Part shown: piece by piece, positions 20,270 through 62,958 of the stretch | Layout: each line of letters starts with the position of its first letter | Position numbering within the stretch: the stretch's first letter is position 1 | From: Elusimicrobiota bacterium | Lineage (GTDB): Bacteria > Elusimicrobiota > UBA8919 | Length of the DNA: 64,000 nucleotides | NCBI GenBank assembly: GCA_003452965.1 | Contig: DMMW01000002.1 | Location: forward strand, 43,975 to 107,974 | Direction of reading: 5' to 3' | Notes under the pieces: generated by a model | The model's input: the letters and a program-made list of their open reading frames with translations, nothing else | Database searches by the model: none | What the model was told of the DNA's origin: nothing | Position numbers and translations under genes: made by a program

Positions 20270-20285
20270 AATTTAAAAAAATATT

Positions 20286-23492: not shown

Positions 23493-23515
23493 TGAAGCTA
23501 TTTGCGGAGTTATTT

Positions 23516-26975: not shown

Positions 26976-27002
26976 TATTGTTGGAAAAATATTCGAGATG
27001 TT

Positions 27003-27127: not shown

Positions 27128-27204
27128 AAATACAATAAAATCCTAAGAATCACTACACAGATACTTATTCAATGGTCTTATAATAACTTTGGAATAATAT
27201 TAAT

Positions 27205-35061: not shown

Positions 35062-35078
35062 AAGGATTGGTGTTAAAT

Positions 35079-37197: not shown

Positions 37198-38196
37198 ATG
37201 TTAAACAAAGTTTTAATTATAGCTGAACTTGGAATGACGCATAATGGTTCGGTATCACTTGCAAAAAAATTGATAAATTCCGCAGTAGATTGCGGAGTAG
37301 ATGCTGTTAAATTTCAAATGCATATTTTTGATGAAGAAAGTTTGCCGGATGCACCATCTCCGAAATATTTTACTAATGAAAGCAGGAAAGAGTTTTTTAA
37401 AAGAACATCGTTTACAGAGGAACAATGGATAGGTATTAAAAAGCATATAAAAGATAAAAGAAAGAAATTTGTTTGTTCTCCATTTTCAATTAAAGCAGTG
37501 AAATCATTGGAAAAGATAGGTGTTGATATATATAAAATCCCTTCAGGAGAAGTTACAAATACACCATATTTAGAAATTGTTGCAAAAACTAAAAAACCGA
37601 TTATTTTATCAACAGGAATGAATAATTGGAAGGAATTAGATAGTGCTGTAAAAACTATTAATAAATACAACAAAAATCTATTTATTATGCAATGTACATC
37701 CTCTTATCCTTGTAAATATGAAGAAGTAGGCCTGAATGTTATAAAAGAAATGCAAGCACGATATAAAATGCCGGTAGGTTTATCTGACCATACATTGACT
37801 ATTTATGCTTCTTTTGCAGCAGTGACTTTAGGAGCAAAGATAATTGAGAAACATTTTACTACTCATAAGAATCTTTATGGTCCTGATGCTAAATTTTCCT
37901 TGGAACCAAATGAAATGAAGAATTTAGTAGAAGGTATAAGAAATATTGAAATAATGCTGAATAACAAGGTTGATAAAGATGATATAATTAAATTTAAAGA
38001 TATGAAGTTTATCTTTGAAAAAAGCATTGTTTCTAAAAAATATATAAAAAAAGGTACTGTTATAACTTCCGATTTATTAGATTTTAAAAAACCAGGTGAC
38101 GGTATACGGGCTGATAGAATGAAAGAAATAATAGGGAAAAAAGTAAAGGTTGATATACCGGGAAATACCATGGTTTTGCTGGAGCATGTAAAATGA
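37198..38196 (+). CDS. neuB: NeuB-family nonulosonic acid synthase (PEP-condensing; sialic/legionaminic/pseudaminic acid synthase)
   Basis: IIAELGMTHNGS..AKKLINSAVDCGVDAVKFQ, C-terminal SAF/antifreeze-like domain. Confidence 0.8.
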   Translation: MLNKVLIIAELGMTHNGSVSLAKKLINSAVDCGVDAVKFQMHIFDEESLPDAPSPKYFTNESRKEFFKRTSFTEEQWIGIKKHIKDKRKKFVCSPFSIKAVKSLEKIGVDIYKIPSGEVTNTPYLEIVAKTKKPIILSTGMNNWKELDSAVKTINKYNKNLFIMQCTSSYPCKYEEVGLNVIKEMQARYKMPVGLSDHTLTIYASFAAVTLGAKIIEKHFTTHKNLYGPDAKFSLEPNEMKNLVEGIRNIEIMLNNKVDKDDIIKFKDMKFIFEKSIVSKKYIKKGTVITSDLLDFKKPGDGIRADRMKEIIGKKVKVDIPGNTMVLLEHVK

Positions 38197-39407: not shown

Positions 39408-41096
39408 ATGATATTTAACAAGGTATTTCAAGTGAAATTATCAAATATTTTATATAAAATAAAATATTATTTGTTCAAATTTTTAAAAAGTGAAAATCTA
39501 AATAAATATGATAAAGATATTGTTATGTATACTGAAAAATTTAAGGAAAAATACGGGGAGTTTCTGACAACAAAAAAAAGAAATAGCAAAAACGGCCATA
39601 CGGTCTTAATATTTAGTACGTTAAACAGTCCATATTCAATGAATATAGAATCAATAATTGCAAAAAAGCTGGAAGAATACGGATTTAGTATAGTGATATT
39701 AACTTTTATCCATTTGAAAAAAATGTCCGATATTATACATGGTGAAATATATGATTTTAATGATATTTTATATTTGGAAGATTTTTTAAGCATTGGAAAT
39801 TCACCTGAAGCAAAGAGGTTGTATAATAAGGTATTATTAATAAATGATGTTAATGAAATAAAAAATATGAGATATAAGAATACTTTGGTTGGGATTCATT
39901 CACTTGCGTCATTTAGCGGAATTGTACCTTCAGGTAAAATACAAATTGATAGAAAATCAAGAAAGAATATTGCAAAAATAGTAAGGAGTTCGTGCCGCAT
40001 TGTTGATGGCATAGAGAAAATAATCGAATTAACTAAACCAGAAAAGGTTTTAGTTTTGGATAAGGGAACGGTTGGTGTCTGTGAAATATTTTATGAATCA
40101 ATTTATCGTGAGATAGATTATTTACAATGGGCAAGTTGCCACGAACCAAATTCTATAATAGTTAAGAGATATAACACCGATAATTTCAGAGAACATCCGT
40201 TTTCAGTCTCAGAAAAAACATGGAATAACTATAAAAACAATAATGAAAATTATAGTGAATTTGTACTGGATTATTTTAAAAAAGGATATTTGGACGGCAA
40301 ATGGTTTGAATATAAAAAATTGGCAACGAACAAGGCATTGGTTACCAAAGAGGAAATAATTAAGAGATTAAAATTAAATTCTGACAAGAAAATAGCAATT
40401 ATATTTTCGCATATTTTAAATGATGCAAATTTCTTTTTTGGGAAAGATTTGTTTAAAAATGGATTTACTGAATGGTTGGTAAAAACGGTGGAAGTCGCAA
40501 GTAAAAATAAAGATGTTAATTGGTTGTTGAAATTACATCCAGCTAATATATTCAGACGTAAAAATATGAAATACCAGGGCGAATATGGGGAAATAATCGC
40601 AATAAAAGAATCACTAGGAAAAATTCCGGAAAATATTACCATTATACCTGCCGATATTAATATTAATCCTTATTCTTTTTTTAAGATTGCTGATTATGGG
40701 ATAACTGTAAGGGGAACAATAGGGGCCGAATTACCGTGTTTTGGTGTCCCTGTATTGACAGCAGGGACCGGAAGGTATTCAGGCAGGGGATTTACAATTG
40801 ATTCAGATAGTGTAGAAGAATATTTAGATAAGATAGCAAATATTCAAAAAATACCTGCATTATCAGAATATCAAAAAGATCTGGCTATTAAGCATGCGTA
40901 TCTGTTTTTTAAAGAAAGACCGGCAAAATATGACTCATATATATATGATATTTATCCTTATCCACAAGAACATCCATTAAATAGGGATATTGAGATTGTT
41001 GATAAGAATTTATTTGATAATAAGGATTTAATAAATTTATGTAATTTCATAAAAAATTCTAAAGATGAAGATTATATTTCAAGTAGAATGTATTGA
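39408..41096 (+). CDS. capsule-polysaccharide-biosynthesis-type protein (KpsC/KpsS-like, tentative)
   Basis: C-terminal WLLKLHPAN...ADYGITVRGTIGAELPCFGVPVLTAGTGRYSG resembles Capsule_synth family; weak. Confidence 0.35.
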   Translation: MIFNKVFQVKLSNILYKIKYYLFKFLKSENLNKYDKDIVMYTEKFKEKYGEFLTTKKRNSKNGHTVLIFSTLNSPYSMNIESIIAKKLEEYGFSIVILTFIHLKKMSDIIHGEIYDFNDILYLEDFLSIGNSPEAKRLYNKVLLINDVNEIKNMRYKNTLVGIHSLASFSGIVPSGKIQIDRKSRKNIAKIVRSSCRIVDGIEKIIELTKPEKVLVLDKGTVGVCEIFYESIYREIDYLQWASCHEPNSIIVKRYNTDNFREHPFSVSEKTWNNYKNNNENYSEFVLDYFKKGYLDGKWFEYKKLATNKALVTKEEIIKRLKLNSDKKIAIIFSHILNDANFFFGKDLFKNGFTEWLVKTVEVASKNKDVNWLLKLHPANIFRRKNMKYQGEYGEIIAIKESLGKIPENITIIPADININPYSFFKIADYGITVRGTIGAELPCFGVPVLTAGTGRYSGRGFTIDSDSVEEYLDKIANIQKIPALSEYQKDLAIKHAYLFFKERPAKYDSYIYDIYPYPQEHPLNRDIEIVDKNLFDNKDLINLCNFIKNSKDEDYISSRMY

Positions 41097-42059: not shown

Positions 42060-43253
42060 ATGAAAAGAAAAAGAAAAAGAAAAATAGGTATTGTTATCGG
42101 AAGCCGGGCAAATTATGCGAGCATTAAATCTGTGGCACGGGAACTTAAGAAAAATAGGAATATTGAGCTTCATATTTATGCGGGTGCTTCTGCAATTTTA
42201 GATAAATATGGTAAGGTTGAAGATATCATAGAAAAGGATGGATTTCATATAGATGAGAGATTCTATATGTTGGTTGAAGGTGAAACACCTGAAACAATGG
42301 CTATGTCCACCGGTTTGGGGATTATACGTCTGGTTGATATATTTCAAAATCAAAGGCCAGATATCGTAATTACGGTAGGAGATAGGTTTGAGACAATGGC
42401 CACCGCTATTTCTGCCGCATATCTTAATATATTTTTAGCGCATACTATGGGCGGAGAGGTCTCGGGAACAGTTGACGAGTCTATAAGGCATGCTGTTACA
42501 AAATTCGCACATATTCATTTCCCTGCAAATAAAAGGGCATCAGACAGAATTATAAAAATGGGAGAAGAACCAAAAAATGTTTTTGTAACCGGATGTCCGA
42601 GAATAGATATAGTTAAAGAAGTTATAGAAGAAAGCAGAAAAAGTAACAATTTTAATGAAGATAATTTTTGGAAGAAGTATAAAGGAGTAGGCGGCAATTT
42701 TTCATTAAAAAAAGAAAAATTTCTATTAGTATTACAACATCCTGTTACTACCGAATTTCATAAAAATAGGGAACATATAAATGAGACATTAATGGCTTTA
42801 AATGAGTTAAAGATACCGACTATAATGCTTTGGCCGAATGCAGATGCAGGTAGTGATGAAATCTCTAAAGGAATACGAACTTTTAGAGAAGAATATAAGC
42901 CGGATTGGTTTCATATTTTTAAAAATTTACCTATGGAAGTTTTTGTGCAGTTAATGGATATGTGTAAAGTATTAATAGGAAATACGAGCAGTGCCATAAG
43001 AGAAGGCGCTATCGTAGGAGTTCCTGTGGTAAATATTGGTACCAGGCAACAGGGGAGATGTAGGGGAAAGAACGTTTTTGATGTTAATTATAATAAAAAT
43101 GAAATAGTAAATGCAATTAAAAAACAAATAGAACATGGAAAATATAAGCCGGATTATATATATGGTGATGGTAAAGCCGGTAAGAAAATAGCAAAAATTT
43201 TAAGTGAAATAGATTTAAATAAAGTTGATATACAAAAAAGGATTTTAATATAA
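42060..43253 (+). CDS. neuC: UDP-N-acetylglucosamine 2-epimerase (hydrolysing), NeuC-like
   Basis: KIGIVIGSRANYASIK, VGDRFETMATAISAAYLNI, HTMGGEVSGTVDESIRHAVTKFAHIHF. Confidence 0.75.
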   Translation: MKRKRKRKIGIVIGSRANYASIKSVARELKKNRNIELHIYAGASAILDKYGKVEDIIEKDGFHIDERFYMLVEGETPETMAMSTGLGIIRLVDIFQNQRPDIVITVGDRFETMATAISAAYLNIFLAHTMGGEVSGTVDESIRHAVTKFAHIHFPANKRASDRIIKMGEEPKNVFVTGCPRIDIVKEVIEESRKSNNFNEDNFWKKYKGVGGNFSLKKEKFLLVLQHPVTTEFHKNREHINETLMALNELKIPTIMLWPNADAGSDEISKGIRTFREEYKPDWFHIFKNLPMEVFVQLMDMCKVLIGNTSSAIREGAIVGVPVVNIGTRQQGRCRGKNVFDVNYNKNEIVNAIKKQIEHGKYKPDYIYGDGKAGKKIAKILSEIDLNKVDIQKRILI

Positions 43254-43355: not shown

Positions 43356-44054
43356 ATGAAAAAAATATTAGCAATTATTCCTGCTCGCGGTGGATCAAAG
43401 GGAATTCCAGGAAAGAATTTATCTAATTTATGTAGGAAACCTTTGATAAAATGGACTATAGATGAGGCAAAAAAAAGTAATTTAATAGATAAGATAATTT
43501 TATCAAGTGATGATGACGAAATAATGGAATATTGCAGAAAACAGGGGATAGAAGTTCCTTTTAAAAGGCCGAAAAACTTTGCTAAAGATAATACACCGAT
43601 GCTTCCGGTGATAAAACATGCAATTAATTTTTTAAAAGTTAATAAAAAGTATGTTCCTGATTATATTTTGCTTTTGCAGCCTACCTCACCGCTAAGAACT
43701 TACAAGCATATAGACGAGGCTTTGAATTTATTAATGAGTTCGGATGCTGATTCTGTCGTAAGTGTAGTTGAGGTTCCTCACAATTTCAATCCTTACTCGG
43801 TGATGAAACTAAAAAACGGATATTTAAAACCGTTTTTAAAATATAATGAAAATATGAACTTACGTCAGAAAAAACCGAAATTTTATGCCAGAAACGGAGC
43901 TGCAATATATGCTTTTACAAATAATTGTTTAATTAAAAAAAATAGCATTTATGGCGATAAAATATTGCCGTATTTTATGAAAAGGGAAGAAAGTATTGAT
44001 ATAGATGAAAAATTTGATATCGAATTAGCCGAAGTTATTATAAAAAATAATTAG
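43356..44054 (+). CDS. neuA: CMP-nonulosonic acid synthetase (acylneuraminate cytidylyltransferase, NeuA-like)
   Basis: KILAIIPARGGSKGIPGKNL, ILSSDDDEI, LLQPTSPLR. Confidence 0.8.
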   Translation: MKKILAIIPARGGSKGIPGKNLSNLCRKPLIKWTIDEAKKSNLIDKIILSSDDDEIMEYCRKQGIEVPFKRPKNFAKDNTPMLPVIKHAINFLKVNKKYVPDYILLLQPTSPLRTYKHIDEALNLLMSSDADSVVSVVEVPHNFNPYSVMKLKNGYLKPFLKYNENMNLRQKKPKFYARNGAAIYAFTNNCLIKKNSIYGDKILPYFMKREESIDIDEKFDIELAEVIIKNN

Positions 44055-44059: not shown

Positions 44060-45493
44060 ATGGGCATAGAAAGCATACTAACAAACTATCAAGTCGGCGT
44101 TGTAAAAGATGAATCTTTAATTTACCCTAAAGAATTTAGTATTAATCTCGACGGAAGTTTGCCTTCCTACAAACGTATTGAGGAACAGATACGCTCAGTA
44201 ATCGCACTTTCTTTAAATACTCCTTATGATGATCCATTAATAAATACAGTTTTTTCCGGAGATTCTGTCTTAATCAAACCTAATCTTGTTTTTCATTATA
44301 AAGAAGGCGGTCCGCCGATTGAATGTTTAGTTACACATTGGTCTGTAATATATGAAGTGGCAAAATTGGTATTAAAAAAATTGGGAAATAACGGTCGTTT
44401 GATTATCGGAGATGCTCCTATTCAGGGATGTGATTTTAAACTATTAACCGAAAAGCAAACGCCATTAAAAGAAATTGTTAAACATCTAAATAGTTTTTTT
44501 CATGTTTCCGTGGAATTGGTAGATTTTAGAGAATTAACATCAGAATACAAATCGGCACTTTTAGTAAATAAATCTAGTAAAATTGAACATGCTAAAGAAA
44601 TTAAATTAAACAATGATAGTTTGTTGCATAATACAAAGCAAGATATCAAGAGATATAGAACTATTGATTATCCGTTCAAACTAACAAGGAAGTATCATAA
44701 TATAGAATATCATGTGTTTAAACTAAATAATTATGTAATAGAATCAGATGTTATTATTAATATGCCAAAATTAAAAACACATTGTAAGACAGGAATTACA
44801 GCTTCTTTAAAAAATTTAGTAGGTACTTTAGCAGATAAGCAGTCTTTACCTCATCATAGGCAAGGTTCATCTTCCAGTGGAGGAGATGAATATTGTAATG
44901 CAGAGTTATTACCTTATATTGAATCAAAAATGTGGGATATAATTAATTTAACAAAAAAATATTCTTTAAAATCATTCATATATTTACTTTTGAGAATAAT
45001 AAAAAAAATATTTAAAATATTCGGCAAAGTAAGCGATCCGTTAAATATATATGGAGGAAGTTGGTATGGGAATGATACTTTGTGGCGGGGTATTCTTGAT
45101 ATAAATCGTTTGTGTTTTTATACCGATAAATATGGTTTTTTATCAGAAAATATCAAAAGAAGATATATAACAATAATAGATGGGATAGTGGCTGGCGAAG
45201 GGGAAGGTCCGCTTTTTAACATTTCAAGAAATACCGGTTTGTTATTGTCAGCAGAAAATCCAGTTGCTTTAGATGCTGTATCAGCAAATATAATTGGATT
45301 TGATTATAATAAAATTCCTCTTATTTTTAATGCACTTAAAATTAAAAAATATCCTATAATGAAATTTGATTTTAATGATATAATTATTCATTCAAATGAT
45401 AAAATATTAAATAACAAAAAATTAAACGAAATTAATTATTTATTTAAATTTAAACCTAGTAAAAACTGGGTTAATCATATAGAGAAGGAATAG
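44060..45493 (+). CDS. DUF362-domain protein (paralog of 57638..59089)
   Basis: SVLIKPNLV, IGDAPIQG, MPKLKTHCKTGITASLKNLVG, GSWYGND, IIDGIVAGEGEGP shared with second copy. Confidence 0.6.
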   Translation: MGIESILTNYQVGVVKDESLIYPKEFSINLDGSLPSYKRIEEQIRSVIALSLNTPYDDPLINTVFSGDSVLIKPNLVFHYKEGGPPIECLVTHWSVIYEVAKLVLKKLGNNGRLIIGDAPIQGCDFKLLTEKQTPLKEIVKHLNSFFHVSVELVDFRELTSEYKSALLVNKSSKIEHAKEIKLNNDSLLHNTKQDIKRYRTIDYPFKLTRKYHNIEYHVFKLNNYVIESDVIINMPKLKTHCKTGITASLKNLVGTLADKQSLPHHRQGSSSSGGDEYCNAELLPYIESKMWDIINLTKKYSLKSFIYLLLRIIKKIFKIFGKVSDPLNIYGGSWYGNDTLWRGILDINRLCFYTDKYGFLSENIKRRYITIIDGIVAGEGEGPLFNISRNTGLLLSAENPVALDAVSANIIGFDYNKIPLIFNALKIKKYPIMKFDFNDIIIHSNDKILNNKKLNEINYLFKFKPSKNWVNHIEKE

Positions 45494-45509
45494 TAGTTGA
45501 GAATTAATT

Positions 45510-47357
45510 ATGGCAGGTATATTCGGTATAGTTGAAAAAAATAGTGAAAAATCGGCAAGTTTTACATTGAATAAAGTCACATCAATGGTGAAGCATTTCC
45601 CTTGGTTGAAGGTTCATTCTATTTCTAATAATGAATTCAAAGGATTTTTAGTATTACCTGATTGTTTGAGCGTTAAAGATTATTTATATGAAGATGATGA
45701 TTTAATAATGTTACTTTACGGTAATATTTCAAGAAAGCATCTTAAAAACACAAAATTGGATGTTTTTATTAATAATTTAAGCGAATTGGCAAGTTTATAT
45801 AAGACAAAGGGTGTTGAATCATTAGTGCATATGGACGGAAGTTATACACTCTGTATATGGGATAAAAAGAAACATTGCTTATATATTGCAAATGATTGGC
45901 TGGGATCGCGAAAATTATATTATTGGCAATCAACTACGGGTATTGTTTTTGGCAGTGAGTATAAAATATGCTTGTTGCATCCGGATTTTAAACCAAAGCT
46001 TGATAAGTTTAGCCTGGTTCAATTTCTTAGAAGAAATTATTTGATACAAGATAACAATATGTATGAGAATATGAAATTAATTCCTTCAGATAGTTTGCTT
46101 AAATACTTTCAGGGTAAACAAGAAATTAAAGTATTTAATTGGGCTAAATTTACTGATGACCGATATAATTGTGATATGGCTGATTTAATTGAAGAATATT
46201 ATCAAATTATATCGAATACGGTTTCTGATTGTCTAATAGGAGCAAAAAAAGTATTGGTTCCGCTATCCGGAGGCCTTGATTCAAGATTATTACTTATTAT
46301 TGCAAATAATATAAAATCAAAAAGTGATTTTGCATTAACAGCTATAAATCATGGGAGAAAATCCAGCGCTGAATCAAAAGCAGCGGATTTGGTAGCGAAA
46401 AAAGTAAAAGTCCCTTTTATTCAAGTTACTTTAAAAGATAATTTTTTGTCGGATTATATTGAAGAACAGAATTGGATAAGTGAATTGGCAGTAGATAGTC
46501 ATGCTACACATTGGTTTCCGACATTATATAAGGTGAAAAGTGAATATGATTGTATTTTATCCGGATACATAGGAGATGTTTTTGCAGGTTCATACCTTAA
46601 TTTATCTGAAGGCATTGATAAAAATAATTTACCTATGTCAGAAAAAGCTAAAATTGTTTTACAAAGATATACCGGAAGAATGCCGATGGAAACCTGCAGT
46701 AAGTTACTTAAAAGAGATTTTGTAGAATTATTAAATGAAGAGGAAAAATCTTCAAGGTGTTATTTGGAAAATACATATGGTAATACAATTAAGGAAAAAT
46801 GGACATTATATTTATTAAATACTCAGATGCGCCGTTTTATATCTTATATTTTAGATTATAATTCTAATTTAGGTGAAGTGGTAGCTCCTTATATTAGCCA
46901 TTCAAATGTAAACTTTTTCTTTTCACTTTCTCCTGCAATTTTACATAACCGTTTATTTTTTAAGGAATTTATGCGATCAAAATTCAAAGGTTTTTCAGAG
47001 GTTATGACTACAGCTGATCCTATGCCCATAGTAAAACCTAGTTCTTTTGATACACATTATATTTATATTAAGCAAATGTTGTTTTATTATTTGTTTTGTA
47101 TTCTAAAGAAACAGATACCGGGAGAAAGAACTTATAATTTGGTATATTATCCGGATATTATTAAGTTTAATAAAAAATATGTTTATAATTCTATATTTAA
47201 TAATCCTTTATTTCCCGAAATATTTAATATGGATATGATGCAGAAACATTGGGATGAATTTCTTTTTGAAAATGATAGTTTGTATTGGCAATGGTTTGAA
47301 TTGTTAGCTTTTGATAAATGGAGTAGAAAGTTTTTAACCAATTATGATGGAATATAA
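45510..47357 (+). CDS. asparagine-synthetase-like ATP-dependent amidotransferase (PP-loop), N-terminal GATase-II-like domain with Ala replacing nucleophilic Cys2
   Basis: Starts MAGIFGIV (canonical MCGI); VLVPLSGGLDSRLLL PP-loop motif. Confidence 0.65.
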   Translation: MAGIFGIVEKNSEKSASFTLNKVTSMVKHFPWLKVHSISNNEFKGFLVLPDCLSVKDYLYEDDDLIMLLYGNISRKHLKNTKLDVFINNLSELASLYKTKGVESLVHMDGSYTLCIWDKKKHCLYIANDWLGSRKLYYWQSTTGIVFGSEYKICLLHPDFKPKLDKFSLVQFLRRNYLIQDNNMYENMKLIPSDSLLKYFQGKQEIKVFNWAKFTDDRYNCDMADLIEEYYQIISNTVSDCLIGAKKVLVPLSGGLDSRLLLIIANNIKSKSDFALTAINHGRKSSAESKAADLVAKKVKVPFIQVTLKDNFLSDYIEEQNWISELAVDSHATHWFPTLYKVKSEYDCILSGYIGDVFAGSYLNLSEGIDKNNLPMSEKAKIVLQRYTGRMPMETCSKLLKRDFVELLNEEEKSSRCYLENTYGNTIKEKWTLYLLNTQMRRFISYILDYNSNLGEVVAPYISHSNVNFFFSLSPAILHNRLFFKEFMRSKFKGFSEVMTTADPMPIVKPSSFDTHYIYIKQMLFYYLFCILKKQIPGERTYNLVYYPDIIKFNKKYVYNSIFNNPLFPEIFNMDMMQKHWDEFLFENDSLYWQWFELLAFDKWSRKFLTNYDGI

Positions 47358-49035
47358 AATCTATTTTCTGGAATCTATAAAGGGACAATTAAAATATCAC
47401 AAGAATTATTTGTTTTTAATGATTTCGATAATATTTGTTTCTATGCCGTTTTTTTTGTTTAGGACAGGGTTAGGGCAGGACGATTGTGCGATTATATTAG
47501 CCGGGTTAAAACAATTAGAATATAAAATATTTTCATTCAAGCCGATGGAAAGCGTTTTTTTTAGGTTATTCGATTTTTCACACGGCGGATTTAATTTGAT
47601 ATGGATTCTTGGATTCTATGTAACCGCGGCTTTTTTTAAAATTTCTCTTTACACATGGATATTTACCTTGCCGGCAGCTATTTCTGCATGGTTAACAGCG
47701 ATAGTTATTTATTTATTTACTTATAAAATAACGAAAAAACGTTTTATATCATTTTTAGCATTTTTAATTTATATTTTTATTCCAATCGCTATTGGTATGG
47801 GTAGACAATATTTTTATCCGTTAACTTTTATTAGGATATTTTTTCTTTATTCTCTCGCAATATCTCTCTCAAAAAATTCCGTATTTTGGAAAAAGATTGC
47901 GATTCTAATATTAGGGCTTATGATTTTTTCCGACAATGGATTTCCGATTTTTCTTTTTTTAGGTTTATTATTAATATTTTTTAATAAGTTGAAAGATTTT
48001 CCTGGAGCGAATTTATTAAAAAAAATATTTTTATCAGTATATAGGACATTTTTGTATTTTGCCGATATTTCCATACTGCTACCTGTTTTTATTATTGTAG
48101 TATATATAGTCCTATATATAAAACCTGTACATGCCGGATACGGATTTATTTACTATACATTACAAAAGAAAATGTCATATGCTTTTTCTTTCCATAAGGA
48201 TATTTTTGCATCGTTATTCGAAAATTACGGGTATGGAATCGGACTAATATTTCCTGTAGTTTTATTTTTTTCAGTTTATCTAATATATATTAAAGACTAT
48301 ATTGAAAAAAGAGCAGATATCTTTGTGATTTATTTATGGTTTTTAATTTGGATAATTTTGGGCTTTGCTGTTCAACCATGGGCATTAGGAAAAATGTATT
48401 TATTTGAATTTACTCCTATACCGGTTGCAATATTAGGAGCAATTAATATAGATTATTTTTTAAATAGATTTAAACGTTCAACGGTAAATGTATTGATCAT
48501 TATTATATTTTTGAATATTATATCGTGTACAAGTATGATTTTTGAATTTCCATATTCATCGCCTCAAAATGTTTATGGTACTCCTAAAGGATACGATTAT
48601 ACTAAAACATATAAAGCGGTGGGTGCTTTATTGCGTTCGGAGGGTTATCATCCTTTGAAAATGAGAGATTTACCTTTAGAAAATGTTCCTATAGTTTTAT
48701 GTGCTAATCCAAGTTATTGGACTCCTTATCCTGCAATATTTTACTGGGGGGTTGATACTTCAAAAATGCCTAATAATTATACAAATACAATTGTATATCT
48801 TAAGGATAGTGGTGGTGACAAAAAACAATTGGAATCTTGCTTAGTTTTTGTAAAAAAGAATAAATTTAATATTAAATATATAATATATAAAAATGAAAAG
48901 CCAATTGCCTGGTTGTATTATAGAAATTATAATATGAAACCAATAAAACATGAAAGAGATTATTTAATAAAAGAGTGGGACAAAAAATATGCTAATCTTA
49001 GAGATATTAAAACAACTGGTCCCCATGCTCTTTAA
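47344..49035 (+). CDS. polytopic membrane protein (about 10-12 TM) with C-terminal soluble domain; possible polymerase/GT-C, unknown
   Basis: Strongly hydrophobic profile; no diagnostic motif. Confidence 0.3.
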   Translation: MMEYKIYFLESIKGQLKYHKNYLFLMISIIFVSMPFFLFRTGLGQDDCAIILAGLKQLEYKIFSFKPMESVFFRLFDFSHGGFNLIWILGFYVTAAFFKISLYTWIFTLPAAISAWLTAIVIYLFTYKITKKRFISFLAFLIYIFIPIAIGMGRQYFYPLTFIRIFFLYSLAISLSKNSVFWKKIAILILGLMIFSDNGFPIFLFLGLLLIFFNKLKDFPGANLLKKIFLSVYRTFLYFADISILLPVFIIVVYIVLYIKPVHAGYGFIYYTLQKKMSYAFSFHKDIFASLFENYGYGIGLIFPVVLFFSVYLIYIKDYIEKRADIFVIYLWFLIWIILGFAVQPWALGKMYLFEFTPIPVAILGAINIDYFLNRFKRSTVNVLIIIIFLNIISCTSMIFEFPYSSPQNVYGTPKGYDYTKTYKAVGALLRSEGYHPLKMRDLPLENVPIVLCANPSYWTPYPAIFYWGVDTSKMPNNYTNTIVYLKDSGGDKKQLESCLVFVKKNKFNIKYIIYKNEKPIAWLYYRNYNMKPIKHERDYLIKEWDKKYANLRDIKTTGPHAL

Positions 49036-56425: not shown

Positions 56426-57634
56426 TTGAAATTATTGTTCGTTTCACAGCATTTTCCGTATCCTCCATATAGTGACGGTTCAAGATTGATCGAATATAAT
56501 CTTTTAAAAAATATTTCTAAATATAATAATATATATTTCATTTCTTTTTTAATTCCGGGCGAAGAAAAATATATCAATCAAATTAAACCATTTTGTGATG
56601 AATTTATTGCTATTCCATTAAAATATAGTAAATTGGGTAGAATTAAAAAATATGTACATGACATATTTTCACCTAAAAGATTTGAATCGGTTTTAATGAA
56701 AAATGAAATTAATGAAGCCGTCAAGAAATTCAATCCGGATGTCGTGCATGTTGATTTACCAATGATGTCACAATATTGGAAGTGTTTTGATAATATTCCA
56801 AAATTAATTAATTCAGTTGATGCAATATCATTATTAGCTTATAAAAATATTAAAGATAATAAGAATTTAATAAAGAAACTTATGTGGTATTTGCTTTATA
56901 AACAGCGAAAATATATAGAGAGCAAATATTTTTTAAACTATAATATTTGCACAGTAGTTTCAGGAGAAGATAAGGAAATGTTAGAAAAACATAGTCCTAA
57001 TCTGAAGATAGAAGTTATACCAAATGGTGTAGATATAGAATATTTTGAAGCAAATAAAGTAGATGTTGATATAAATGATTATGATGACGCAATCTTAGGT
57101 ATCTTTGGGGGAATGGATTTTTTTCCTAATGAAGATGCTTCAATATTTTTTATATCGGATATTTTTCCTTTAGTTAAGAAAGAATATCCGCAAGTTAAAC
57201 TGTACTTAGTCGGCAGGAAACCATCGGAAAGATTGAGTAATTTCGTGAAAAATAGAAGGGATATTATAATGACGGGTGAAGTTGAAGATATTAGGGAATA
57301 TTATAAGAAGGTTTCCATAGTAATATCTCCGATCCGGTTAGGTTCAGGTATAAAGAATACGGTTTTACAGGCGATGTCGATGTCTAAGGCTATCGTATGT
57401 ACATCGCAGGCAGTGAAAGCTATTGATATTATAAATGGAAAACATGTTTTGGTAACAGATAAAAATGTAGAATTTGCTGAAAAAATTATTAATCTAATTA
57501 AAAATAAGGAACTTAGAAAAAATATTGGAGATAATGCGCGTAATCTTATTGTTGAAAAGTACTCATGGGAAATTCACGCAAAACATTTCCAAAAAATTTA
57601 TAAAGATATAAGTTTAGAAAAAGATGTAAGGTGA
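56426..57634 (+). CDS. GT4-family glycosyltransferase (TTG start as listed, RBS ggag 7 nt upstream)
   Basis: MKLLFVSQHFPYPP, IRLGSGIKNTVLQAMSMSKAIVCT. Confidence 0.7.
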   Translation: MKLLFVSQHFPYPPYSDGSRLIEYNLLKNISKYNNIYFISFLIPGEEKYINQIKPFCDEFIAIPLKYSKLGRIKKYVHDIFSPKRFESVLMKNEINEAVKKFNPDVVHVDLPMMSQYWKCFDNIPKLINSVDAISLLAYKNIKDNKNLIKKLMWYLLYKQRKYIESKYFLNYNICTVVSGEDKEMLEKHSPNLKIEVIPNGVDIEYFEANKVDVDINDYDDAILGIFGGMDFFPNEDASIFFISDIFPLVKKEYPQVKLYLVGRKPSERLSNFVKNRRDIIMTGEVEDIREYYKKVSIVISPIRLGSGIKNTVLQAMSMSKAIVCTSQAVKAIDIINGKHVLVTDKNVEFAEKIINLIKNKELRKNIGDNARNLIVEKYSWEIHAKHFQKIYKDISLEKDVR

Positions 57635-57637: not shown

Positions 57638-59089
57638 ATGTCTTTTATTATTTTTGATAAAAACATCGAATATCCATCAAATGAATATTATTTTTCACCA
57701 AGTGAAAAATATCCGGAATATAACTTTGGACATATTTCTAAGAATCCGAATAATGTATACGGGGCAGTCAGAAAATGCTTGATAAACGCAGGTCTGGATA
57801 AGGAAAATTATGGAAAATCAAATTGGAATCCGCTAAGTTCGTTAATTTCTAAAGGAAATAATGTTTTTGTGTTATGCAATTTTGTTTATCATAAAAAAAA
57901 CGATGAGACAGAAGAAGAGTTTTTTGCAAAATGTACACACGGTTCAGTTATCAGGGCAGTAACTGACTACATTTTACTGGCTGTCGGAGAAAATGGTTCT
58001 GTTTCTTTCGGGAATTCACCTTTGCAATCTTGTGATTGGGATAAAGTATTGCAAGATACCAGGGCAAATAAGATTGTCGAATTTTATAACAAATATAAAA
58101 ATAAGAATTTTAAAGTTAGTGCGGTTGACCTAAGACTTTATAAAACCGTAAGAGATAATTTAGGTAGAATATTATCAATTAATGATGAAAAAGAAAACGG
58201 TTTAAATATTAATATTGATATTGGTAAGGACAGTTTGCTGGAGGTATTATATAATGATAATAAAAAGCCGGAGTTCAGGGTTTCAGATTATAATCCCCGA
58301 AGTATAATGGAATGTCATGATATCGGGAAACATATTTATATGTTGAATAAAAAAATATTAGAATCCAATGTGATAGTAAGTATTCCAAAGCTTAAAACAC
58401 ACGAGAAAGTTGGGATAACGTGCGGGTTGAAAGGTTGTGTAGGTGCAATCACATATAAGAAGTGTTTAGTGCATCACCGTTTTGGTTCATTAAAAACTGG
58501 AGGAGATGAGTATTTAGAAAATTTTTTCTTATTGAAATGGTTTTCAATATTTCACGATTATGTTAATAAAAAGAGTATTGGTTTATTTGAAAATATTTTG
58601 CATATTTGTGATAAAATGTTCTGGAAATTTTCAAGAATAATTGGTATTAATGTATTTGGCAGCTGGTACGGAAACGATAGTGCGTGGCGTATGACTTTAG
58701 ATATTGCAAGAATTTTGAGGTATTCTACTGTTTCAGGTGAATTGAAAAATGAACCGCAAAGAAAACATATGCTTTTTACTGACGGTATTATTGCCGGGGA
58801 CGGTAATGGTCCTCTATCTCCTAATCCTGTAAAAAGCGGAATTCTTAATTTTTGTGATGATATTGTAATTGGGGACTACGTTAGCAGTTTAATTATGGGA
58901 TTCAATCCTGATAAAATTAAAATGATAAAAGAAGCATTTCGGATGAATAAATATAATTTAACTGAAAAATTACCAAAAGATATAATAGTAAAAGTAAATG
59001 GCGAATTGATACCTCTAAATAAATTAAACTCGCATTTGAAATTAAAGTTTATCCCTCCTAAAGGTTGGAAAAATCATATAGAATTATAA
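57638..59089 (+). CDS. DUF362-domain protein (paralog of 44060..45493)
   Basis: SIPKLKTHEKVGITCGLKGCVG, GSWYGNDSAWR, TDGIIAGDGNGP, KGWKNHIEL (matches SKNWVNHIEKE of paralog). Confidence 0.6.
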   Translation: MSFIIFDKNIEYPSNEYYFSPSEKYPEYNFGHISKNPNNVYGAVRKCLINAGLDKENYGKSNWNPLSSLISKGNNVFVLCNFVYHKKNDETEEEFFAKCTHGSVIRAVTDYILLAVGENGSVSFGNSPLQSCDWDKVLQDTRANKIVEFYNKYKNKNFKVSAVDLRLYKTVRDNLGRILSINDEKENGLNINIDIGKDSLLEVLYNDNKKPEFRVSDYNPRSIMECHDIGKHIYMLNKKILESNVIVSIPKLKTHEKVGITCGLKGCVGAITYKKCLVHHRFGSLKTGGDEYLENFFLLKWFSIFHDYVNKKSIGLFENILHICDKMFWKFSRIIGINVFGSWYGNDSAWRMTLDIARILRYSTVSGELKNEPQRKHMLFTDGIIAGDGNGPLSPNPVKSGILNFCDDIVIGDYVSSLIMGFNPDKIKMIKEAFRMNKYNLTEKLPKDIIVKVNGELIPLNKLNSHLKLKFIPPKGWKNHIEL

Positions 59090-59101: not shown

Positions 59102-60418
59102 ATGACACTATTCGGTACTATCAGAAAAAAAATATTATCAAAAAATATTGAAAAAAGAAATCTTGAATATCTTCAAGTTATGGAAGATAAACAAAGATTA
59201 TTTTTTCAGTTGGGAAAATTTAATAAATGCTGGCAGAAAATAATTAAAAATATTCAATATTATTCAGATTTAGTTAATGATAAGAAACTTCCAAAAAGAT
59301 TTGAGACATGGAAAGAGTTTTTAGAAAAAGTGCCGGTTATTACTAAAAAAACTATACAAGAGAGTAAAAATATAATGTTTGATAAGTCAAGGAATATTGA
59401 TTTTGTACGTACTACAGGAGGAACAACCTCACAGCCGATTCAATTACCTGCATGGAATTCGGAGATGAGAATAACAGAGCTGGATATGTGGTTCGCAAGA
59501 AGTTGGTATGGAATATATCCAAATAGCAAATTATTTCTGATATGGGGTCACAGCCATTTGTTGGGGGCAGGAATAAAAGGAAAAATTAACAAATTTAAAA
59601 GAAAATTTAAAGATTATCTTTTGGGATATTACAGGTTTTCAGCATATAATATGAATGAAGAAAATATGCGTAGAGCAGCTTTGGAAATGTTGGATTTTCA
59701 TCCGGATTATATTATTGGTTACAGCGTGGTTTTAGATTCTTTTGTAAGAGCAAATAGAGATTTAATAACGGAACTAAGAAAAATAGGGGTTAAGGTAGTA
59801 ATAGGCGCTGCCGAATCATTTCCTTCAGATAATACCGAAGAAATACTTGGTAAAATGTTTAATTGTCCGGTTGGTATGGAATATGGTTCGGTTGAAACAA
59901 ATTTAATTGCCCATACTCATCCTGATGGCGGATACAAGGTTTTTTGGCAAAACTATTTTGTAGAAGCAATTGATAACGGATTACAAAATGGCAAAATAAT
60001 AAGGGTGACTAGTCTTTATCCGAGATGTTTTCCTTTGATTCGTTATGAGATTGGCGACGCTGCGCAATTATTTGAAGGGGATAACGGGATTGGATTAACC
60101 CGTTTTCAGAAGGTTATCGGCAGATGTAATTTATCTGTTAATTTGAAAGATGGAAGTATAATTCATTCCGAAGTTTTTACACATGCTTTACGTGATTGCG
60201 AAGGTATTATTCGTTATCAGGTGATACAGAATAAAGATTCAATAAGATTGTTAATAATTAAAAATGAAAAATTTAATAATAATATGGAAATAAGAATTAA
60301 AGAAAAATTTTCTAAAATTCATCCTGATTTAAATAAAGTAAAAATTGAAGTAGTGCAGAATTTGGAACAAACTTTAGCAGGTAAAACACCGATGATAATA
60401 AGACATACTGTGGATTGA
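59102..60418 (+). CDS. adenylate-forming enzyme of the CapK / phenylacetate-CoA-ligase / F390-synthetase-like family
   Basis: RTTGGTTSQP (AMP-binding TSGTTG-type), length and topology of PaaK-like enzymes. Confidence 0.55.
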   Translation: MTLFGTIRKKILSKNIEKRNLEYLQVMEDKQRLFFQLGKFNKCWQKIIKNIQYYSDLVNDKKLPKRFETWKEFLEKVPVITKKTIQESKNIMFDKSRNIDFVRTTGGTTSQPIQLPAWNSEMRITELDMWFARSWYGIYPNSKLFLIWGHSHLLGAGIKGKINKFKRKFKDYLLGYYRFSAYNMNEENMRRAALEMLDFHPDYIIGYSVVLDSFVRANRDLITELRKIGVKVVIGAAESFPSDNTEEILGKMFNCPVGMEYGSVETNLIAHTHPDGGYKVFWQNYFVEAIDNGLQNGKIIRVTSLYPRCFPLIRYEIGDAAQLFEGDNGIGLTRFQKVIGRCNLSVNLKDGSIIHSEVFTHALRDCEGIIRYQVIQNKDSIRLLIIKNEKFNNNMEIRIKEKFSKIHPDLNKVKIEVVQNLEQTLAGKTPMIIRHTVD

Positions 60419-60496: not shown

Positions 60497-60543
60497 GCTC
60501 GTAGCCACTGCAACGAGCGAGTATGCAACCCCGTTTTACGGGG
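60497..60543 (+). other. two GC-rich hairpins (GCTCGT..ACGAGC; CCCCGT-TTT-ACGGGG) between direct motif copies
   Basis: read directly. Confidence 0.5.
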
Positions 60544-60555
60544 CAAACATCATCT

Positions 60556-60570
60556 AATCTGTGTAATCAG
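60556..60570 (+). repeat. junction motif AATCTGTGTAATCAG (+), right copy, 18 nt before ATG 60589
   Basis: direct read of sequence. Confidence 0.8.
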
Positions 60571-60588
60571 GTTTTACAAGGAAGGATA

Positions 60589-61710
60589 ATGAAGATAGTA
60601 ATTAATGCTTATTCTGCGCGAAGGGGTGGTGGGCAAACATATTTAACAAACCTGCTTAAAAATATAGATTCAAATCCCAGATTGGAAGTTTATATTTTCG
60701 CTGACGAATCACAGTATATACCCAACCATCCAAATATTAAAAAGATAAAAACAAACTGGTCGACTTGCAATCCTTTTTTTAGAACAATATGGGAAAAGTT
60801 TATATTGCCTATATTTTTAAAAAAGATAAAAGCGGATGTTCTTTTTTGTCCTGGCGGACTAGTGAATACAAGAGTTCCGGTTGGATGTAAAATTGTTACA
60901 ATGTTCCGTAATATGATTCCGTTTGATATTGAGCAAAGGAAAAAATACCCGTTTGGATATATGAGGTTTCGTAATTGGTTATTGGAGAAACTTTTTTTGA
61001 AAAGCATGCTAAAAGCGGATTTGGTTATTTTTATATCGGAATATGCTAAAAAAGTTATTGAAAATAGAATACCCATTAAATTAAAAAAAACAGTATTAAT
61101 ACCTCATGGTATAAACGAAGAATTTAAGGTTTCTGATAGGACCAATATGATAAGACCTAATCAATTACCAAAAGAAGATTATATTCTTTACGTTTCTTTG
61201 TTTGACGTATATAAAAATCAGATTGAAGTTGTGCAAGCATATAATTTATTGAAAGAAAGGCGTAAAACTTTCGAAAAACTGGTTTTTGTCGGTTTTAATG
61301 ATACGCAATATGGTGAAAGAGTTAAAAAAGAAATATTGAGATTAGGCTTGAAAAATGATATAATCCTGCTTGGCAATATTGATTATAAAGATTTGCCAAG
61401 TATATATAAGTTTGCTAAAATCAATATATTTGCATCTGAATGTGAAAATTGCCCAAATATACTGCTTGAAGCAATGGGAGCAGGAAGGCCTTTAGTTGTC
61501 TCAAATAAGCCACCGATGCCTGAATTTGGCGGTGATTCTGCGATTTATTTTAATCCTAGGTCACCGGAAGATTTATGCAATAAAATTTTTACTATTATTG
61601 ATAAGCCCGGGGAATTGAATGGGTTATCTAAAAAAGTCTTTGAGCGTTCCTTGTTATATGATTGGAAAGAAACTTCAAGAAAAACATGGGAAGCGTTAAA
61701 AAGTTTGTAA
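60589..61710 (+). CDS. GT4-family glycosyltransferase
   Basis: MKIVINAY after RBS aggaagg; CPNILLEAMGAGRPLVVSN E-x7-E region. Confidence 0.75.
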   Translation: MKIVINAYSARRGGGQTYLTNLLKNIDSNPRLEVYIFADESQYIPNHPNIKKIKTNWSTCNPFFRTIWEKFILPIFLKKIKADVLFCPGGLVNTRVPVGCKIVTMFRNMIPFDIEQRKKYPFGYMRFRNWLLEKLFLKSMLKADLVIFISEYAKKVIENRIPIKLKKTVLIPHGINEEFKVSDRTNMIRPNQLPKEDYILYVSLFDVYKNQIEVVQAYNLLKERRKTFEKLVFVGFNDTQYGERVKKEILRLGLKNDIILLGNIDYKDLPSIYKFAKINIFASECENCPNILLEAMGAGRPLVVSNKPPMPEFGGDSAIYFNPRSPEDLCNKIFTIIDKPGELNGLSKKVFERSLLYDWKETSRKTWEALKSL

Positions 61711-61713
61711 AAA

Positions 61714-62958
61714 ATGAATATTTTAATTGTTTCACATTATTTTTGGCCGGAAAATTTACGTATAAATGATTTAGCTTTGGGGTTGGTTGATAAAGGTCAT
61801 TTTGTGACGGTTCTAACGGGAATACCTAATTATCCCGAAGGTAAGTTCTATGAAGGTTACAGTTTTTTTAAAAAACTAAAAGAGAATTATAAAAATATTA
61901 AGATAATAAGGGTGCCGGTAATACCGCGAGGCAAGGCAAGAAAAATAGATATGATATTAAACTATCTGTCATATCCGCTTATGGGAAGTTTATTAGGTCC
62001 TTTTTTATGTAAAGATAAATATGATGTAATTTTTGTTCCGCAGTATTCGCCTTTTACCGTAGGAATTCCTGCGGTAGTTTTAAAATGGTTTAAGAAAAGT
62101 CCTATTTTGTTTTGGGTCCAGGATTTATGGCCCGAAAGTGTTGTTACTGCAAAGGATTCAATAAAATCACCTTTTATACTAAAGCTTATTGAAAAAATGG
62201 TAAGATTTGTATATAAAAATTGTGATAAGGTTTTAATTCAATCAAAAGCGTTTATAGATAATTTGGAAAAAATGGGAGTCAATCAAGAAAAAATTTATTA
62301 TTTTCCTAACTGGGCGGGCGAGTTTTCTCAACAGGATTCAGTATCTGAAAAAAAAGAAAAAGTACCGGATTTGCCAAAAGGTTTCCGCTTGATGTATGCA
62401 GGTAATATCGGTACGATTCAGGATTTTGAAACTATATTAACTTCTATGGAAAAATTGAAAAATTATACTGATATACATTTAATTGTAATAGGAGAAGGGC
62501 GAAATAGCGGGTGGGTAAGAGAACAAGTTAAACTAAGAAATTTAGATAAGAACGTTCATTTATTAGGCAGGAAACCGATAAATGAAATGCCTTATTACTA
62601 TTCACAGGCGGATGCGATGTTGGTAACACTCAAGACCGAACCGATATTTGCATTAACTATTCCAAATAGAGTCCAGTCGTATCTTGCGAGCGGCAGGCCT
62701 ATTATTGCAGGTTTAGATGGTGAAGGTGCAAGGGTTATTAATGAAGCCGGAGGGGGTTTGACCTGCCCGAGTTCAAGACCTGAAGAACTAAAGGATATAA
62801 TTTTAAAACTTTATAAAAAAACACCGACAGAACGGACTGAAATGGGATCCAAGGGTTTGGATTATTACAGAAAAAATTTTGATTATAATATGTTAATGGA
62901 TAAATTAGTAAATTTAATGGCTAATATCAGTGAGTGTCCCATTAGGAAAGCCTATTAG
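61714..62958 (+). CDS. GT4-family glycosyltransferase (WcaI-like)
   Basis: MNILIVSHYFWPENLRINDLALGL, GNIG, C-terminal GT-B region. Confidence 0.7.
   Translation: MNILIVSHYFWPENLRINDLALGLVDKGHFVTVLTGIPNYPEGKFYEGYSFFKKLKENYKNIKIIRVPVIPRGKARKIDMILNYLSYPLMGSLLGPFLCKDKYDVIFVPQYSPFTVGIPAVVLKWFKKSPILFWVQDLWPESVVTAKDSIKSPFILKLIEKMVRFVYKNCDKVLIQSKAFIDNLEKMGVNQEKIYYFPNWAGEFSQQDSVSEKKEKVPDLPKGFRLMYAGNIGTIQDFETILTSMEKLKNYTDIHLIVIGEGRNSGWVREQVKLRNLDKNVHLLGRKPINEMPYYYSQADAMLVTLKTEPIFALTIPNRVQSYLASGRPIIAGLDGEGARVINEAGGGLTCPSSRPEELKDIILKLYKKTPTERTEMGSKGLDYYRKNFDYNMLMDKLVNLMANISECPIRKAY

Follow-up and report, generated by a model that had tools for sequence, protein, structure and literature searches.

The two DUF362 genes in the 64,000-nucleotide stretch of Elusimicrobiota DNA that was analysed (the window) are each followed directly by an ATP-dependent carboxylate-activating enzyme, and at roughly even confidence we read both gene pairs as a conserved glycan-tailoring module, in which a constant DUF362 protein of LarA (lactate racemase) fold would be combined with an interchangeable ATP-dependent carboxylate ligase acting on the same residue. 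Gene linkage, fusions, fold, conserved residues and partner homologies are the observations behind this reading.

DUF362a (44060..45493, 477 aa) and DUF362b (57638..59089, 483 aa), both on the + strand, match PF04015 with 93.8 and 65.6 bits, respectively (gathering threshold 24 bits), and the alignment is confined in both to the C-terminal half of the model (profile positions about 84–199). The paralogs are 34% identical over 427 aa (E = 1e-65), and 16 nt separate DUF362a from its AsnB-like neighbour and 12 nt DUF362b from its CapK-like neighbour. All four open reading frames of an earlier sequence-only reading are present on the + strand at the coordinates given here, and the motifs PKLKTH, LK..VG, GSWYGND, DGI(V/I)AG(E/D)G.GP and (N/G)W.NHIE are common to DUF362a and DUF362b. 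Against an HMM of 66 relatives both paralogs give E values of about 1e-138, which places them in the long-form DUF362 subfamily: proteins of about 480–500 aa that align over their full length to a profile of about 489 positions and carry the invariant residues K237, K239, H241, K251, H265, D276, W335, N338, D347 and D374. Sixteen positions, mainly charged or polar, are invariant across 70 sequences; DUF362b departs from two nearly universal residues (K73L and D118N, numbered as in DUF362a). Clustered at 50% identity, one and the same profile retrieves 1335 long-form clusters at E ≤ 1e-30 and 8912 DUF362 clusters at E ≤ 1e-3.

That DUF362 pairs with an ATP-dependent carboxylate-activating enzyme, as the sequence-only reading had proposed, is borne out by a neighbourhood survey and by gene fusions. 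The survey covered 80 loci with 81 long DUF362 genes, drawn from more than 20 phyla. Of these 81 genes, 50 have a CapK-like gene on the same strand within 400 bp, and a ligase of any kind lies within 400 bp of 54 and within 3 kb of 63. The pairing of DUF362 with CapK is not by chance, as 37 CapK adjacencies were observed against 7.4 ± 2.3 when gene order was shuffled within loci, and none of 5000 shuffles reached 37. The median gap between the two genes is −4 nt, and the association with a partner is distributed across the whole DUF362 tree. GT4 genes stand no more than two genes from DUF362 in 27 of 65 loci. Canonical Cys-bearing AsnB is adjacent at chance level (3 adjacencies observed, 2.2 expected under within-locus permutation). 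This, the mosaic nature of glycan loci and the 18 of 81 DUF362 genes with no recognised ligase within 3 kb (several of them at contig ends) would fit an adjacency that has no mechanistic meaning, with independent tailoring enzymes merely co-occurring in hypervariable glycan loci. Such a reading is strongly disfavoured, and we consider it highly improbable, in view of the permutation result, the overlapping genes, the persistence of the association across phyla and tree, and fusions in both domain orders.

The partner of DUF362b is a CapK/PaaK/VpsH-like adenylate-forming ligase of 438 aa (59102..60418, + strand) with the motif TTGGTTSQP at aa 104–112. It has no Pfam match; PaaK-like NCBIfam models give E values of 1e-13 to 3e-4, all far under their cutoffs, and the best of the PaaK-like PDB chains, 6siw, gives 2.9e-5. 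An HMM of 47 DUF362-linked homologs matches it with E = 5e-65. Judged from these matches, the protein is a superfamily-level relative of PaaK and CapK, outside any curated family. VpsH, the CapK-like protein of Vibrio cholerae VPS, is implicated in the addition of glycine to the carboxylate of L-GulNAcA, and VpsJ is proposed to carry out a C5 epimerisation before that step (PMC13463779). Using proteins of Vibrio sp. THAF191d in place of those of V. cholerae, we found 24% identity over 337 aa (E = 4e-14) between the window protein and the gene at the VpsH position of a syntenic Vibrio vps-like cluster. Cluster and window have the same local composition, in that each combines its CapK-like ligase with a GT4 and with an epimerase-like protein that belongs to no assigned family. 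The protein at the VpsJ position (388 aa) has no PF04015 match, only weak (α/α)6-type matches, and an hhalign probability of 0.5% against the DUF362 profile. The VpsJ-like protein is not a DUF362; if the two roles are analogous, DUF362 would be a non-homologous replacement.

The partner of DUF362a is an AsnB-like PP-loop adenylating enzyme with GATase_7 and Asn_synthase domains (45510..47357, + strand; PF00733 46.5 bits, cutoff 21; PP-loop SGGLDS at aa 253–258). Its N-terminus reads MAGIFG and an earlier start codon is impossible, so that the protein lacks the N-terminal Cys nucleophile (Cys1). Orthologs with 45% identity lie directly 3′ of the DUF362a orthologs in two further loci, L085 and L087, and begin with MAGLFG and MAGVFC (VAGVFC when translated from the L087 DNA), Cys1 being absent in both. 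All three known members of the DUF362a clade are thus followed by a Cys-less AsnB-like gene, and in none of them can glutamine supply the nitrogen. The three proteins share about 25% identity with their next relatives, and no further close relatives of this Cys-less subfamily were found among 5.8e9 proteins. The AsnB-type sugar amidotransferases WbpS (Pseudomonas aeruginosa O6) and MoeF5/MoeH5 (moenomycin) resemble the window enzyme in domain composition, PP-loop and, in setting, a glycan locus, but differ from it in the MAG(I/L/V)F start without Cys1. This partner is therefore not of WbpS type, contrary to the comparison drawn in the sequence-only reading.

In another reading, DUF362 would itself be a nitrogen-donor subunit that generates or delivers ammonia or an amine for a glutaminase-less ligase, as GatD does for MurT. 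All three types of partner lack a working glutaminase, the AsnB-like one having specifically lost Cys1 in the three members of the DUF362a clade. AsnB genes of the canonical MCGI kind show no preference for a place beside DUF362, and the tight coupling and fusions are compatible with substrate channelling. We nevertheless judge this role improbable: no amidohydrolase is known to have the fold of DUF362, the protein has neither a conserved Cys nor an obvious Ser-Lys nucleophile pair, VpsH and the C-terminal domain of Cj1438 work with free glycine or phospho-amines and so without a donor subunit, and in some of the surveyed loci DUF362 is accompanied by a canonical AsnB that depends on glutamine.

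In one Clostridia clade a third ligase superfamily substitutes: a TupA-like ATP-grasp gene adjoins DUF362 in loci L009, L023, L042, L051 and L057. The window has no ATP-grasp partner. Ligase and DUF362 are also found in single polypeptides, as DUF362-TupA (P0197), as TupA-DUF362 (P0212), so that both domain orders occur, and as TOD1/MUCI70-GT2-TupA-DUF362 (P0249); DUF362-GT4 fusions are found in P0181 and in L042. An ATP-grasp of the same family forms the C-terminal domain of Cj1438 from the Campylobacter jejuni HS:2 capsule, where it makes the amide at the C6 carboxylate of GlcA; the other two domains of Cj1438 are a GT2 and an unassigned middle domain, with no DUF362 among them (PMC11800379). 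The combination of glycosyltransferase and ATP-grasp is repeated in P0249. The amine donors for Cj1438 are made by PLP enzymes. Since the partners are homologous to VpsH and to the C-terminal domain of Cj1438, amidation of sugar carboxylates, which the sequence-only reading had suggested, appears the most plausible chemistry of the ligases.

Long-form DUF362 has the two-domain fold of LarA and, apparently, part of its active-site constellation. LarA chemistry requires the nicotinic-acid-derived NPN cofactor, which is tethered at Lys184; His200 is a nickel ligand, His108 and His174 are catalytic and Arg75 binds phosphate. In a weak hhalign profile alignment (E = 0.042), DUF362a residues 220–266 fall on LarA 153–200, placing H241, K251 and H266 on LarA H174, K184 and H200, and D374..P384 on D278..P288. 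The core motif in question, PKLKTH241-x9-K251-NLVG-x9-H265H266 (44765..44860, + strand), corresponds to LarA H174-x9-K184...H200 and, by sequence comparison, to PKLKTH-x9-K-GCVG-x9-HH in DUF362b (58385..58480, + strand); in the extended hhalign, D374-GIVAGEGEGP384 (45179..45211, + strand) is co-linear with LarA D278...G285..P288-L289. H241, K251, H265, D374 and P384 do not vary among 70 relatives, while position 266 is His in 53 of the 70; H265, although invariant, misses LarA H200 by one residue in a register that is weak and draws on the hhalign and on spacing identities. LarA His108 aligns with I121, followed by Q122, and no Arg stands at the Arg75 position, both in a low-confidence region of the alignment; 9q3k is a LarA-like enzyme with one histidine. 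Structural alignments of DUF362 with LarA give 9–14% identity. Compared with LarA, DUF362 has large insertions at about residues 150–230 and 280–330 and a C-terminal extension, and its genes lie in loci for glycan assembly, next to an ATP-dependent ligase, and not in a setting of hydroxy-acid metabolism. Neither window protein matches PF09861 (DUF2088) at E ≤ 0.01, and PDB sequence and profile searches with DUF362 retrieved no LarA chains. DUF362 and LarA belong to one Pfam clan, CL0471 (PMC11770544). The earlier statement that DUF362 has no assigned function stands in that the literature searched assigns none, but the family is structurally characterised, with the LarA fold.

Two further roles are conceivable for the pair. 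In one, DUF362 would be a small-molecule racemase or epimerase for a 2-hydroxy acid, or a similar acid or amine, that supplies the stereoisomer used as co-substrate by the ligase, the glycan not being its substrate. Remoter Cys-less AsnB-like ligases of glycan loci have as neighbours not DUF362 but enzymes of co-substrate supply, an Asp/Glu racemase in L092 and an alanine dehydrogenase with an ATP-grasp in L095, which speaks for this role. The fusions of DUF362 to glycosyltransferases and the Cj1438-type polypeptide of glycosyltransferase, GT2 and ATP-grasp suggest action at the assembly site and not soluble metabolism, the His108 equivalent is missing, and nothing points to an NPN cofactor, as LarB, LarC and LarE queries gave no tblastn match in the window and 1.53 Mb of flanking sequence. 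On this balance we regard such a role as unlikely.

In the other, the ligase would be a maturation factor that adenylates a carboxylate-bearing cofactor and attaches it to Lys251, and holo-DUF362 would then carry out a glycan reaction. The alignment sets Lys251 on the residue that tethers the cofactor in LarA and the His residues on the nickel ligand. The maturase of LarA, LarE, is a PP-loop ATP pyrophosphatase, as is the C-terminal domain of AsnB; the window AsnB-like protein is a weak match to the LarE model (E = 2e-5, far under the model cutoff), and one-to-one gene pairing and fusions would suit a dedicated maturase. Still, three generic amidoligases for glycans are a more parsimonious assumption than three unrelated superfamilies that converge on one specialised modification of a protein, the relatives that have been characterised (VpsH and the Cj1438 C-terminal domain) work on glycans, and larB and larC are absent nearby, so we give this role a low probability.

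Further genes around the two pairs lie on the + strand as well. Upstream of the DUF362a pair lie a NeuB-type nonulosonic acid synthase (37198..38196; PF03102, E = 2e-79), a 562-aa protein without a Pfam match (39408..41096), a NeuC-like member of the UDP-GlcNAc 2-epimerase family (42060..43253; PF02350, E = 1e-70) and, 5 nt before DUF362a, a NeuA-like CMP-sugar-acid cytidylyltransferase (43356..44054; PF02348, E = 3e-25). NeuB and the 562-aa protein are part of a conserved NeuB/NeuC/NeuA/DUF362a/AsnB-like block that recurs in L085, where the gene immediately upstream of DUF362 encodes a protein 33% identical to the 562-aa protein (E = 6e-79). Downstream, a hydrophobic, apparently polytopic membrane protein of 563 aa (47344..49035), without a Pfam or NCBIfam match, overlaps the stop codon of the AsnB-like gene by 14 nt; its position is not conserved, as in L085 the place after the AsnB-like gene is taken by a GT4 gene. 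A GT4 glycosyltransferase (56426..57634) stops 3 nt upstream of DUF362b, and two more (60523..62958) lie downstream of the CapK-like gene. NeuB, the NeuC-like protein and the CMP-transferase bear out the nonulosonic half of the earlier label "nonulosonic/uronic-acid-rich"; the uronic half is unsupported, since no UDP-sugar 6-dehydrogenase was found within the window.

For the glycan-tailoring module we infer a substrate, an order of steps and a DUF362 reaction as follows. The constant part would be long-form DUF362, a cytoplasmic enzyme on the LarA fold; the ligase would be CapK/PaaK/VpsH-like in most lineages, TupA-like in the Clostridia clade and Cys-less AsnB-like in the DUF362a clade. By homology, the ligase may activate the carboxylate of a sugar acid as an acyl-adenylate or acyl-phosphate, the sugar acid being a uronic acid, or here possibly a nonulosonic acid, on a lipid-linked or growing glycan, and would then join the activated acid to an amine or amino acid, as reported for VpsH and the Cj1438 C-terminal domain. 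DUF362 might act on the same residue or intermediate in physical association with the ligase, which is the weakest step; its activity would most likely be of the epimerase/isomerase type, through the His241/Lys251/His265-266 pocket, and might either prepare the acid sugar for ligation or make use of its carboxylate once this has been activated. To abstract a hydride from C5 of a pyranuronate is awkward chemistry, which counts against the module, and the module is further weakened by the poor LarA register with no visible His108 and Arg75 equivalents, by the missing lar genes, by the roughly one fifth of loci with no ligase within 3 kb, by a bi-domain oxidoreductase that is an alternative close partner in 7–9 loci and by the lack of a UDP-sugar 6-dehydrogenase in the window.

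The coupling to three ligase classes, the fusions and a LarA-like Lys/His pocket point to one setting for DUF362, in which acidic sugars of surface glycans are tailored, and with it to the first concrete, testable clue to its role. Acidic sugars decorated with amides influence biofilm matrices, capsules and antigenicity, so that a widespread and unrecognised DUF362 component is relevant to predicting glycan structure from genomes. It is also relevant to the question of whether chemistry of the LarA type reaches past 2-hydroxy-acid metabolism. More speculatively, and with little confidence on our part, long-form DUF362 could be a second catalytic branch of the LarA superfamily that has kept the Lys tether and His ligand and uses a covalent pyridinium-type cofactor (NPN-like or new), perhaps installed by the adjoining adenylating enzyme, for redox-neutral epimerisation of acidic sugars in glycan assembly. 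If true, this would reveal a missing class of enzymes that use organometallic chemistry of the LarA type and provide a function for a family with thousands of members.

The glycan biosynthesis locus in the window is encoded on a single strand with a low GC content (~30%), and groundwater metagenome contigs match its sequence. According to the sequence-only reading, it holds two DUF362 paralogs, each directly followed by a carboxylate-activating enzyme of a different superfamily. All four ORFs were confirmed: DUF362a (44060–45493) with an AsnB-like partner (45510–47357), and DUF362b (57638–59089) with a CapK-like partner (59102–60418). Both paralogs match DUF362 in Pfam (93.8 bits for DUF362a, 65.6 for DUF362b; cutoff 24) and share 34% identity over 427 residues (E 1e-65), with every motif quoted for them present. 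The AsnB-like protein combines GATase_7 with Asn_synthase, and its PP-loop reads SGGLDS. The CapK/PaaK-like assignment stands at the superfamily level: the protein carries the TTGGTTSQP motif and is related to PaaK-type ligases, with sub-cutoff NCBIfam matches (E 1e-13) and a PDB match to 6siw (3e-5), but a Pfam search with it gave no match. The gaps between DUF362 and partner are 16 nt (AsnB-like) and 12 nt (CapK-like), and the genes on the 5′ side stop 5 nt and 3 nt before DUF362a and DUF362b, respectively. The AsnB-like partner starts with MAGIFG and has no N-terminal cysteine; it therefore lacks the glutamine-hydrolysing Cys of class II amidotransferases. That DUF362 might serve as a nitrogen-donor subunit is a reading we consider improbable.

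Several other genes of the locus are of note. A 731-aa fusion of a pyruvate-kinase barrel domain, PUA_2 and ATP-sulfurylase (17547–19742) is flanked by a sulfotransferase and an APS kinase (16717–17550 and 19739–20269); the three form a PAPS-supply module with an unusual kinase fusion within the glycan locus. At 23492–25060, a cytidylyltransferase-like domain precedes a PfkB sugar kinase domain, whereas HldE usually has the two in the opposite order. The regions 26121–28122 and 33850–35657 contain a transketolase split into separate genes for its N and C halves, and a radical SAM/SPASM enzyme adjoining a SIS-domain protein. Just downstream of the DUF362a/AsnB-like pair, a FemAB/GNAT-like protein (weak PEP-CTERM FemAB match) and a formyltransferase (49166–51001) hint at further aminoacyl or N-acyl tailoring.

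The pairing with a ligase is not peculiar to the window. A profile built from 40 DUF362 proteins of the long form was searched against contigs from one genome per species, and the best 80 of >547 matching loci, spanning >20 phyla and including one archaeon, were surveyed. In these best 80 loci, a frame-independent domain search placed a same-strand CapK-like domain no more than 400 bp from 50 of the 81 DUF362 genes, 38 upstream and 12 downstream. The median CapK–DUF362 intergenic distance is −4 nt, as is typical where the stop codon of one gene overlaps the start codon of the next, and the association is spread over every major branch of a neighbour-joining tree of DUF362 proteins. When gene order was permuted inside each of 65 loci and adjacency counted by gene, 37 CapK adjacencies were observed against 7.4 ± 2.3 in shuffled loci, and none of 5000 shuffles reached 37. 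Counting any ligase (CapK-like, AsnB-like or ATP-grasp), 54/81 DUF362 genes have one at most 400 bp away and 63/81 at most 3 kb away; among the remainder, several lie at contig ends. Chance co-location of DUF362 and ligases is effectively excluded. The proposed association with AsnB did not extend to the canonical enzyme: AsnB starting with MCGI is frequent in the loci, but its adjacency to DUF362 (3 observed versus 2.2 expected) is close to expectation. A test for covariation between partner type and variable DUF362 positions gave no signal beyond phylogeny. Of the ManNAcA genes tested for enrichment, WecB (four loci) and WecG (two) were both rare; UDP-sugar 6-dehydrogenases, present in 19/65 loci, were uninformative. 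No long DUF362 was found among 72,556 plasmids searched.

Ligases of three superfamilies replace one another beside DUF362. A Clostridia clade of DUF362 has no CapK neighbour; its ligase is a TupA-like ATP-grasp, which brings in a third superfamily of ATP-dependent carboxylate ligases, unrelated to the other two. The DUF362a clade is small, with two further known members (proteins P0002 and P0003, 47–48% identity), each directly followed by an AsnB-like gene of 614–617 aa whose product is 45% identical to that of the window. Both orthologs also lack Cys1, starting with MAGLFG and MAGVFC (the latter translating as VAGVFC from the DNA of locus L087), and they are the only close relatives of the window protein among 5.8 billion proteins searched, the next being at ~25% identity. 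In one fetched locus (L085), the DUF362/AsnB-like pair lies inside a block of NeuB, 2-epimerase, CMP-transferase and a ~550-aa protein, as in the window. This ~550-aa protein, which has no family match (window 39408–41096; L085 8352–9986; 33% identity, E 6e-79), is thus conserved between two different organisms as part of the NeuB/NeuC/NeuA/DUF362/AsnB-like block. A ~715-aa bi-domain oxidoreductase (Zn-ADH + GFO/IDH/MocA) lies at most two genes from a long DUF362 in 9/9 loci having it; it is just downstream of DUF362 in L034, L052, L056, L064 and L068, and the gene after it in Myxococcota is a canonical AsnB.

Two DUF362-free glycan/exosortase loci contain distant Cys-less AsnB-like proteins (~25% identity), one adjoining an Asp/Glu racemase (L092, 6001–8656) and the other with an alanine dehydrogenase and an ATP-grasp nearby (L095, 4803–10234). 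These neighbours speak for an alternative in which DUF362 makes a small-molecule co-substrate of the ligase, a role that we regard as unlikely, though less so than that of nitrogen donor.

When 1.84 billion representatives were searched exhaustively with the profile, 1335 clusters matched at E ≤ 1e-30, and fusions were recognised among the longest matches. DUF362 is joined to a TupA-type ATP-grasp in both orders (DUF362-TupA in P0197; TupA-DUF362 in P0212), and a 1409-aa protein (P0249) combines a TOD1/MUCI70-like glycosyltransferase, GT2, TupA and DUF362. Further fusions are DUF362-GT4 (P0181 and locus L042), DUF362-TOD1/MUCI70 (P0175) and DUF362-PGA_cap (P0268). Apparent fusions of 1000+ aa joining CapK to DUF362, or DUF362 to AsnB or the oxidoreductase (L081, L055 and L038), were rejected as longest-ORF artefacts in high-GC loci. 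The ATP-grasp fusions in both domain orders, together with the glycosyltransferase fusions, argue for DUF362 and ligase being a physical and functional unit where the glycan is assembled.

PDB searches by sequence, with DUF362 or its profile, gave no match. The AlphaFold2 model of DUF362a, built on the long-form alignment (mean pLDDT 91.8, pTM 0.93), has LarA-family chains as all of its top 18 Foldseek matches, consistent with the placement of DUF362 and DUF2088 (LarA) in one Pfam clan (PMC11770544). In LarA, the nickel-pincer nucleotide (NPN) is held by Lys184, Arg75 and His200, and catalysis is by His108 and His174 (PMC11770544). A profile–profile comparison of the long-form alignment with three LarA homologs gave one weak alignment (E 0.042), whose confident core places D230, H241, K251 and H266 of DUF362a on LarA D163, H174, K184 and H200; the extended alignment places D374..G381..P384-L385 on D278..G285..P288-L289, and a plain HMM alignment has an identical register. 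All of the 70 long-form sequences compared have H241, K251 and H265, and position 266 is His in 53/70. LarA His108 pairs with an aliphatic residue, and no Arg is seen opposite Arg75. DUF362b keeps the H/K/H core despite Leu replacing the Lys of the IKPN motif (57869–57880; Lys in 67/70 relatives) and Asn replacing the Asp of GDAP (58010–58021; Asp/Glu in 69/70). Lys251 of DUF362a could also be imagined as an attachment site on which the ligase installs a cofactor, but we give this little credence.

Full-length LarA, LarB, LarC and LarE encoded on a Lacticaseibacillus plasmid served as references. No larB, larC or larE homologs were found in the window or 1.53 Mb of flanks, and no lar genes among the window ORFs. 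The sole Lar-related match in these flanks is a genuine LarA homolog on a Spirochaetales contig (L075, ~20039–20983; 31% identity to L. plantarum LarA), ~9 kb from a DUF362 gene. On the Foldseek, residue alignment and lar gene results, DUF362 is a LarA-fold protein retaining part of the cofactor/catalytic constellation, but it differs from NPN-dependent racemases on several counts.

Relatives of the ligases have described roles in surface glycans. In the C. jejuni capsule, the C-terminal TupA-like ATP-grasp of Cj1438 amidates glucuronic acid at its C6 carboxylate (PMC11800379), and TupA-like enzymes are predicted in general to decorate surface polysaccharides with amino acids (PMC12632600). 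In V. cholerae, a 2026 study assigned glycine addition to L-GulNAcA to the CapK-like VpsH, following a C5 epimerisation proposed for VpsJ (PMC13463779). We found a complete, syntenic and unannotated vps-like exopolysaccharide cluster in Vibrio sp. THAF191d (L097; NZ_CP046066.1, 1032985–1051944), on a 1.85-Mb replicon recorded as a “plasmid” with PLSDB annotation nearly absent. The protein in the VpsH position of this cluster and the CapK-like protein of the window are homologs (24% identity, E 4e-14). The possibility that VpsJ is a DUF362 was rejected: the protein in the VpsJ position is not one, and has only weak Pfam matches of the (α/α)6-barrel type. The vps-like cluster and the DUF362 loci are alike in combining a CapK-like ligase with a GT4 and an epimerase-like protein, whereas this last component is unrelated between them.

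By homology, the ligase would activate a sugar-acid carboxylate and join it in amide linkage to an amine or amino acid. For the Cys-less AsnB-like enzyme, which would be unable to use glutamine, this would have to be an external amine. Through its His/Lys/His pocket, DUF362 may carry out an epimerase/isomerase-type reaction on the residue or intermediate that the ligase acts on, a role that we propose with low confidence. Equally tentatively, this step might either precede ligation, as proposed for VpsJ, or act on the activated carboxylate.

The clan-level relationship between DUF362 and LarA and the chemistries of the ligases were already known. Literature searches on DUF362, PF04015, COG2006 and F390 synthetase turned up no functional study, and full-text searches no description of the DUF362–ligase pairing. 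In glycan loci, a LarA-fold protein and an ATP-dependent carboxylate ligase are conserved as a unit, in many cases translationally coupled and in some fused, which would add a previously unrecognised LarA-fold component to glycan-acid amidation systems.
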